From a virus (lineage: Duplodnaviria > Heunggongvirae > Uroviricota > Caudoviricetes): a stretch of 23,679 nucleotides of DNA. Positions 5,968-16,439 of this stretch are shown here, one piece after another; the first letter of the stretch is position 1; the number at the start of each line of letters is the position of its first letter. The position numbers were made by a program, and so were the translations under genes. The stretch lies in the IMG/VR virus record IMGVR_UViG_2671180884_000031, one strand, 5' to 3'. A model generated the notes under the pieces. That model searched no databases. It was given only the letters and a program-made list of their open reading frames with translations, and had not been told where the DNA came from.

Positions 5968-6021
5968 ACGGCGGTAGAGCAGTCACGGAGTAAAACTGAT
6001 ACTGCCAAACGTCACCAGAAA
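5968..6021 (-). ncRNA. dicF: DicF small regulatory RNA (ftsZ-targeting antisense sRNA)
   Basis: Minus strand reads TTTCTGGTGACGTTTGGCAGTATCAGTTTTACTCCGTGACTGCTCTACCGCCGTTTTT, near-identical to recalled K-12 DicF, ending in a GC stem plus T-run; lies ~170 bp upstream of dicB as in K-12. Confidence 0.8.
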
Positions 6022-9794: not shown

Positions 9795-9897
9795 TGTTAG
9801 GTATTTTAGACGTTACTAGATTAAAAAGCATTAGTTCAGGAGTGAATTGACATTCTCATTTTTCATGGCACAGGGTAGATCTGGCGTGGTTGTCCGC

Positions 9898-9918
9898 TTT
9901 GTGCCAGGAGCGGACGTT
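9898..9918. repeat. att-like repeat copy A (left boundary of cargo module 1)
   Basis: TGTGCCAGGAGCGGACGT (9900..9917) recurs exactly at 12452..12469 and in degenerate form at ~13998..14015. Confidence 0.5.
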
Positions 9919-15610: not shown

Positions 15611-15882
15611 GAATCTACTACTTATATTGATATTAGCAATGTAATTGCTAAAGTATTCCTAGCCCACTATTCATCTAAATATGGTTGTCGAAAGGCCCGC
15701 TTCTCGCTCAAAGCGGACTAGAAGGTTAGCTTGTGTCGGACTTTGCGTATTAAATGACTAGTGGTTGAGCCCCATTTCCACAGAAAAAATCAGAGAAACT
15801 ATACCCAATAGTTGTATTGAATCACTGACGAGACAGCCTCATATTCATCAGGACTGGTGTACGTCCAATACAGGAGGTTGTG

Positions 15883-15972
15883 GTGCTGGTTCTCAAATGT
15901 GCGCTGGCTATTACGGCTGTAATGGCGATTTATTGTCTTGCTATTGTTCTTATGGATCGCCTTTCTGACTGA
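15883..15972 (+). CDS. Candidate small hydrophobic peptide (29 aa, GTG start), type-I-toxin-like
   Basis: Canonical AGGAGG SD (15872..15877), 5-nt spacer, GTG; product (M)LVLKCALAITAVMAIYCLAIVLMDRLSD is a single predicted TM helix. Overlaps a 67-aa Cys/Gly-rich ORF in another frame that is judged spurious. Confidence 0.3.
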   Translation: MLVLKCALAITAVMAIYCLAIVLMDRLSD

Positions 15973-16183
15973 TTTCACATTGGCGAGGTAACGGTAGTTA
16001 AGTAGAATGGCTGCGGGTGCTTGAGGCTATCTGCCTCGGGCATGAACACCAACGGCAGATAGAGAAAAGCCCCAGTTAACATTACGCGTCCTGCAAGACG
16101 CTTAACATTAATCTGAGGCCAATTTCATGCTAGACATATGTAGGTTAGCCTCTTACGTGCCGAAAGGCAAGGAGAAGCAGGCT

Positions 16184-16339
16184 ATGAAGCAGCAAAAGGC
16201 GATGTTAATCGCCCTGATCGTCATCTGTTTAACCGTCATAGTGACGGCACTGGTAACGAGGAAAGACCTCTGCGAGGTACGAATCCGAACCGGCCAGACG
16301 GAGGTCGCTGTCTTCACAGCTTACGAACCTGAGGAGTAA
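16184..16339 (+). CDS. hokD: Hok-family small membrane toxin HokD (RelF)
   Basis: MKQQKAMLIALIVICLTVIVTALVTRKDLCEVRIRTGQTEVAVFTAYEPEE matches recalled HokD; AAGGAGAA SD; an in-frame upstream ATG at 16127 could give an extended form. Confidence 0.8.
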   Translation: MKQQKAMLIALIVICLTVIVTALVTRKDLCEVRIRTGQTEVAVFTAYEPEE

Positions 16340-16407
16340 GAGACCCGGCGAGGGAGAAATCCCTCGCCACCTCTGATGTGGCAGGCATCCTCAACGCACC
16401 CGCACTT

Positions 16408-16439
16408 AACCCGCTTCGGCGGGTTTTTGTTTTTATTTT
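16408..16439 (+). terminator. Rho-independent terminator after hokD
   Basis: CCCGC-TTCG-GCGGG hairpin followed by TTTTTGTTTTTATTTT; a second 8-bp hairpin (GGCGAGGG/CCCTCGCC) lies at 16347..16368. Confidence 0.6.

Follow-up and report, generated by a model that had tools for sequence, protein, structure and literature searches.

The window, as we call the whole stretch of 23,679 nucleotides that was analysed, is a Qin-like lambdoid prophage of E. coli. In the RefSeq annotation of an identical locus, dicC, a ydaT-like gene, a replication gene and a DUF977 gene are followed by a cargo island (genes for an SDR oxidoreductase, an HTH regulator, an integrase fragment and two hypothetical proteins) and then directly by hokD, rem, ydfU and the gene for the Q antiterminator. 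There is thus no relBE in this stretch, as had been noted before. E. coli K-12 lacks the whole studied stretch, and there relBE abuts hokD. The Rfam matches in the window are DicF, two cspA-type leaders and the sok/hok leader.

Between the cargo island and hokD there is an ORF of 29 codons (Table 1), the product of which reads (M)LVLKCALAITAVMAIYCLAIVLMDRLSD. An ORF just upstream of hokD with a Shine-Dalgarno (SD) sequence, a 5-nt spacer and a GTG start had been proposed in the original prediction, and direct reading of the sequence bears this out. Another GTG in the same frame, at 15880, leaves a distance of only 2 nt to the SD sequence, and the codon at this place is GTC, TAT, ATC, GTT or AAC in the relatives. 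Because this GTG is not conserved and because the copy on pINV, the virulence plasmid of Shigella and EIEC, has ATG at the position of the GTG at 15883, the latter is considered to be the right start. The stop codon lies 8 nt ahead of the −35 hexamer of the hokD promoter. Two other readings of the stretch were tried and rejected. The ORF is not the C-terminus of a longer protein, there being an in-frame TGA near 15826 and no start codon from there to 15880; and a "terminator-like" hairpin at 15907–15926 lies within the coding sequence, contains 3 GC pairs and is not conserved among other haplotypes.

The adjoining hokD locus (15980–16425) is complete in the window, with its own promoter, leader, mok, hokD and terminator. 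The hok mRNA leader begins near 16015, and the sok/hok Rfam model matches it at 16015–16189 with 112.7 bits. The hokD copy of K-12 misses these upstream parts because relBE abuts hokD there.

The size of the ORF is by itself unremarkable, since 30 ORFs of at least 20 amino acids overlap the 1.6-kb region. It is the comparison with relatives, and not ORF size, that raises this putative gene above chance.

Table 1. Positions in the window of the 29-codon ORF, its putative signals and the neighbouring features
Feature	Position	Strand	Remarks
DicF (Rfam)	5969–6020	−	
24-nt hairpin motif GTCCGCT-N10-AGCGGAC, left copy	9892–9915	−	2 copies observed vs 0 in shuffled controls
24-nt hairpin motif, right copy	15695–15718	+	
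Overlapping 67-aa ORF	15765–15968		
Palindrome AACTATACCCAATAGTT	15797–15813		
Promoter-like GTGATT-16-TATAGT	15797–15824	−	overlaps the palindrome, points away from the 29-codon ORF
Antisense 59-aa ORF	15799–15978	−	
−35-like hexamer TTGAAT of the putative promoter of the small gene	15817–15822	+	TTGNNN with 17-nt spacer in 153/171 loci
−10-like hexamer CATATT of the putative promoter	15840–15845	+	169/171 loci, at −43 to −38 (±1) from the start codon
SD sequence AGGAGG	15872–15877	+	read directly; spacer TTGTG, 5 nt to the GTG at 15883
29-codon ORF, predicted single-pass membrane peptide MLVLKCALAITAVMAIYCLAIVLMDRLSD	15883–15972	+	GTG start; TGA stop at 15970–15972
ORF 3' end plus 7 nt	15954–15979	+	retained at almost every hokD locus, including those with a truncated ORF
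hok promoter, −35 hexamer TTGGCG	15980–15985		17-nt spacer
hok promoter, −10 hexamer TAGAAT	16003–16008		
mok frame, 70 aa	16127–16339		
hokD	16184–16339		
hokD terminator	16408–16425		

Relatives and distribution

Relatives were collected as follows. An exact 25-mer of the hok promoter/leader, which is independent of the ORF, was searched for in public collections and yielded about 200 loci, and a degenerate pattern derived from the window's own ORF yielded about 60 further loci; searches of E. coli genomes, of phages and of plasmids with blastn and tblastn supplied diverged copies. An intact ORF is present at 171 loci, which represent 35 nucleotide haplotypes and 23 protein variants, and in about 86 hokD loci the ORF is truncated or replaced, so that it is polymorphic for presence and absence between otherwise syntenic phages.

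A 251-nt region was matched by blast in 1,975 of 5,426 complete E. coli genomes, and the module is found in the functional phages mEp460, Tritos, Evi and HannyBb. An intact copy of the ORF, 72% identical and with an ATG start, is present on 135 pINV plasmids. About one third of the complete E. coli genomes, inducible phages and the Shigella/EIEC virulence plasmid thus carry the ORF. A scan of genome contigs anchored on the hok promoter gave matches only in E. albertii and E. ruysiae, and the family as a whole is confined to elements of Escherichia and Shigella. Small-protein surveys in K-12 could not have seen the peptide, since K-12 does not have the gene; it has escaped every K-12-based small-protein catalogue and has not been assigned to a protein family.

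Selection on the 29-codon frame

The length of 29 codons is the same in all 35 haplotypes, without a frameshift in any of them. GTG serves as the start codon in 34 of them and ATG in one (pINV), the stop codon is TGA in 34, and the GGAG(G) core of the SD sequence is retained in 33, the two exceptions being AAAAGG and GGGGG. The frame is therefore kept in the related prophages, where its loss would have spoken against the original prediction. This does not mean that an open frame is in itself informative: under permutation of the alignment columns the probability of finding no stop codon was 0.55–0.80.

The substitutions are more telling. Of the six frames the 29-codon frame has the lowest pN/pS (0.33), the other five having values of 0.48–1.16, and variable sites are distributed over the three codon positions as 16:6:22 (p = 0.012). 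In a column-permutation test, which keeps relatedness and mutation type, the nonsynonymous fraction was 0.52 versus an expected 0.72 (P = 0.015), and a polar or charged residue was never introduced at residues 6–24 in any variant (P = 0.0002), where it should be noted that these selection tests rest on few independent substitutions, because diversity is shallow and the relatives are at least 72% identical. Between the L206 type and pINV, the most distant pair, 13 of the changes are synonymous and 7 are nonsynonymous (Fisher p = 2.5e-5).

The degenerate pattern used for retrieval could have favoured wobble variation, and the test was for this reason rerun on two subsets. With codons 2–15 alone, which lie outside the retrieval pattern, P was <0.0002; with the set anchored only on the hok promoter, P was 0.04 for the nonsynonymous fraction and 0.02 for the polar residues. 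As judged from these substitution patterns, the 29-codon ORF is under purifying selection in its frame, with the qualification that some of the nucleotide conservation at its 3' end may serve the hok promoter rather than the protein.

The predicted peptide

The original prediction of a single transmembrane (TM) helix agrees with the hydropathy of the peptide: residues 6–24 have a mean Kyte-Doolittle value of 2.58. The N-terminus is short and contains an invariant Lys5. It is followed by a predicted helix of 19 residues that is rich in Ala, Ile, Val and Leu, with an invariant Tyr17, near-invariant Cys6 and Cys18 and a small-residue face formed by A7, A/T/V11 and A15. The chain ends 5 residues past the helix in an acidic tail, D/E/N-R/H-L-S-D. 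M1, V3, K5, L8, A9, I16, Y17, L19, L23 and D29 do not vary, and the replacements found elsewhere are I/V, A/V/T, M/V/I, D/E/N, R/H, L/F and S/T.

Searches of Pfam, NCBIfam, PHROGs and PADLOC gave no family match, and the Hok/Gef profile (PF01848) did not match the peptide in Pfam at E ≤ 1. A HMMER scan of 1.84 billion representatives returned nine matches, all of which are the 29-residue peptide with over-extended N-termini. In these entries it is merely the SD region that has been translated, and they do not indicate a longer protein. In databases the peptide is named only "hypothetical protein" or "membrane protein". For example, WP_000960667.1, ACT39199.1 (strain REL606) and OSK45992.1 are the same peptide or variants of it more than 85% identical, and all are automatic calls with no family. 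PGAP annotates the ORF in a few genomes (e.g., strain 1943) and leaves it unannotated in most. A full-text literature search with the peptide sequence found no paper that mentions it, and a CFT073 Ribo-seq preprint describes other small membrane proteins.

A conserved promoter-like site

Upstream of the ORF there is a promoter-like site, TTGAAT-17-CATATT, from which transcription of the small gene is predicted to start near 15852. The −35 hexamer is TTGAAT, TTGAAG or TTGAGT in the different lineages, and the −10 hexamer is TATATT in one locus. The site is also present in the diverged pINV and L206 lineages. Between lineages the length of the 17-nt spacer is kept and its sequence is completely different. 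When representatives of eight lineages were scanned, only two promoter-like sites had a conserved position on the plus strand, namely the CATATT site and the hok promoter. With only 8 of 12 positions matching, the site is below the threshold of a generic scan, and the case for a promoter is for this reason based on conservation and not on motif strength. The −35 hexamer is lost in 14 loci, and in the BL21-type locus, where the ORF directly follows the DUF977 gene, there is no such promoter.

On the minus strand a promoter-like GTGATT-16-TATAGT is found just to the left of this site and is common only to the window-type and pINV lineages. The palindrome AACTATACCCAATAGTT, with which it overlaps, was considered as an operator and dropped, since it is missing from the L005, L016 and L206 lineages.

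Separability from hokD

The hok promoter lies downstream of the ORF in 155 of the 169 loci with readable downstream sequence. In 12 prophage loci (types L206, L214 and L225) the ORF is intact and hok is absent, unrelated sequence beginning about 15 nt after the ORF and being followed by a convergent DUF1971 gene. On pINV what comes after the ORF is a decayed hok promoter with a leader stub and, about 290 nt further on, icsP. Conversely, cargo junctions are located inside the ORF, at 15930–15954, in about 86 hokD loci, among them those of O157:H7 strains, and are never nearer to the hok −35 hexamer. These ORF-cutting junctions fall into at least five classes, the commonest of which carries a QueH-like gene. 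Since each occurs without the other intact, the ORF and hokD are separable neighbours and not one system, and since cargo truncates the ORF so often, the small gene is dispensable. The sequence at 15954–15979 is probably the upstream part of the hokD promoter.

The arrangement on pINV can be seen in pWR100 (L204), where the promoter-like site, the SD sequence, the intact ORF and the hok stub are found at 2440–2700 and icsP at 2848/2881. The upstream region of icsP thus derives from a lambdoid hok module, because the ORF and a decayed hok stub precede it.

Proposed function

The ORF is, in our judgement, quite probably a genuine autonomous gene of Qin-like prophages that encodes a 29-residue membrane peptide and that is a neighbour of hokD/mok/sok and not a component of it. 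Most likely it constitutes a promoter-SD-ORF unit that is mobile among lambdoid elements of Escherichia and Shigella and that is usually found beside hokD. Its weak sigma-70 promoter would give rise to an mRNA that has an approximately 30-nt leader, the canonical SD sequence and the GTG start, and translation of this mRNA would yield a bitopic peptide of the inner membrane. No terminator was found between the ORF and hokD in the window, and transcription therefore presumably continues into hok; the final codons of the ORF would at the same time form the flank upstream of the hok promoter.

With respect to function we favour a membrane-embedded modulator or an accessory peptide of the moron type. 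The peptide would act within the membrane, its small-residue face serving for helix-helix packing, and the target could be a membrane protein of the host or of the phage; alternatively, self-association of the peptide could perturb the membrane. In size (about 30 amino acids), in the predicted single TM helix and in a face of small residues that could pack against the helix of a partner it resembles MgtS, MgrB, AcrZ, PmrR and KdpF. It differs from these in that there is no homology and in that its gene is phage-borne rather than part of the chromosomal core.

Prophage morons are independent promoter-gene-terminator units in lambdoid phages, such as bor and lom of lambda and gp15 of HK97. Like them, the small gene appears to be a self-contained unit with a promoter-like site, and some prophages have it while others of the same gene order do not. 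As to a terminator, the L206-type loci have a hairpin next to an A/T run, recognized by eye, which is located 15 nt past the stop codon and is terminator-like, and the window has no terminator before hokD. Unlike the morons that have been characterized, all of which are far larger, the gene codes for 29 amino acids. Our verdict is that the peptide would be an uncharacterized small membrane protein of prophages, which would add a member to a familiar class rather than represent a new kind of system. As such it is a cheap and well-defined target for asking what the small membrane proteins of prophages do. The position of its gene directly against the hokD promoter also bears on how upstream transcription that enters hok affects a textbook type I system.

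Alternative explanations

The main rival, which we consider rather unlikely, is that the peptide is membrane-active and toxic or lysis-modulating, that it has no RNA antitoxin and that it is expressed only during phage development, alongside Hok, by read-through of the early-right operon, where it could contribute to host shut-off or to depolarization of the membrane. The ORF does lie inside that operon and is co-oriented with its replication, hok, rem and Q genes. In the BL21 locus the DUF977 gene immediately precedes it, and it has no promoter of its own there. In addition, the topology of the peptide, a basic N-terminus followed by a TM segment, resembles that of Hok, and a GTG start together with a weak promoter would hold its basal level low. 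However, conservation of the promoter-like site does not depend on which genes lie upstream, and pINV keeps an intact copy outside any phage operon, both of which argue against this rival.

It is distinctly unlikely that the stretch is not a gene at all and that its DNA is conserved as the upstream part of the hokD promoter or as the flank of a recombination hotspot, the frame being incidental. Several observations would fit such an explanation: at hokD loci the 3' end is kept even where the ORF is destroyed, cargo junctions cluster in and around the stretch, PGAP passes over the ORF in most genomes, and most copies are more than 90% identical, so that an open frame is easily kept, as the permutations mentioned above indicate. 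What speaks against it is that the excess of synonymous changes and the exchange of hydrophobic strictly for hydrophobic residues are found in the 5' two-thirds (codons 2–15), which, to judge from the cargo junctions, hok does not need. Moreover, the GTG/ATG exchange at the start and the conserved spacing of the SD sequence argue for translation, and the ORF is intact where hok is absent or decayed.

Distinctly doubtful, too, is the proposal that the peptide is coupled to Hok, for example as a modulator residing in the membrane or as an immunity factor, or that it is a second toxin, of a new kind, which would be set by promoter strength and the GTG start instead of an RNA antitoxin. If this were true, the widespread "intact" hokD locus would be a two-peptide module, and one that work on K-12 had missed because relBE has replaced that part of Qin.

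The original prediction had placed the peptide with type I toxins or small membrane regulators. A classical type I toxin, which would damage the membrane and be restrained by an antisense or divergent sRNA, is very unlikely. The peptide is similar to the type I toxins of E. coli (Hok/Gef, TisB, ShoB, IbsC, DinQ, ZorO and Ldr) in having fewer than 60 amino acids, one hydrophobic helix and a short charged end; its gene is carried by a mobile element, and next door there is a bona fide type I locus, hokD/sok. In the window-type and pINV lineages there is also the minus-strand promoter-like GTGATT-16-TATAGT. What the tests in silico did not find are the regulatory parts. The search for an antisense promoter or sRNA that had been suggested revealed no promoter-like site of conserved position on the minus strand, whether over the ORF or after it, and a 3'-overlapping antisense gene would not be conserved, since the sequence after the stop codon is replaced in L206-type loci. 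No inverted repeat that would link the conserved upstream region to the ORF mRNA, as for a divergent sRNA, was found in silico; no Rfam family reached significance at the ORF; and RNA folding, compared with shuffled controls on either strand, gave nothing unusual (z = 0.79, −0.12 and −0.92). The mRNAs of Hok, TisB, ShoB, ZorO and DinQ have long sequestering leaders, whereas the leader predicted here, counted from the conserved −10 hexamer, has a length of only about 30 nt and leaves a canonical SD sequence exposed. Nor does the peptide have sequence similarity to any of the type I toxins. It would thus have the shape of a type I toxin without the regulatory features that define such systems, and the second half of the original prediction, a small membrane protein or regulator, appears to fit better.

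Finally, it can practically be dismissed that the real gene is the overlapping 67-aa ORF, whose product many genome records list as a hypothetical protein, or the antisense 59-aa ORF, although antisense ORFs are called in the annotation of phage HannyBb: the 67-aa frame is not the conserved one (pN/pS 1.16 versus 0.33), its upstream two-thirds are missing in the BL21, HannyBb, L016 and L206 lineages, its product is Cys/Gly-rich, as off-frame translations often are, and has no family match above noise, and the antisense frame has stop codons in 6 of 32 haplotypes.

Possible cargo exchange and a second small ORF

In the window, the 5.8-kb cargo island that separates the DUF977 gene from the small ORF is flanked by inverted 24-nt hairpins. 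In at least 18 related loci this hairpin bracket encloses differing cargo of 1.5–5.8 kb, and the identity between loci stops at the hairpin. The bracket may mark a hotspot of cargo exchange or a recombination site. The right hairpin and the promoter of the ORF are separated by approximately 100 nt (15697–15800) that are conserved in most E. coli copies, some of which have a 14-nt indel, AGAAGTGCTGGTGG, and that are missing from the L005, L016 and L206 lineages.

In E. coli B strains a deletion joins the DUF977 gene to the region of the small ORF (positions 1204–1563 of the BL21 locus, L003). As a result of this fusion the annotated DUF977 protein of B strains ends with ...FMCWFSNARWLLWL*, which represents the first 14 codons of the small ORF read out of frame.

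A second small hydrophobic ORF, which is unrelated to that of 29 codons and has its own SD sequence, encodes 27 amino acids, MTWPEAFTTVGIA[ILM]AVALVVYSICRWG. It is found about 160 nt upstream of the 29-codon ORF in about 10 loci. In L016, for example, it extends from −245 to −161 relative to the 29-codon ORF, and its start overlaps the stop of a gene for 187 amino acids (ATGA). In L023 it replaces the 29-codon ORF directly before the hok promoter, at −113 to −29 relative to the hok −10 hexamer. From these arrangements, small TM peptides appear to be recurrent occupants of the position before hok.
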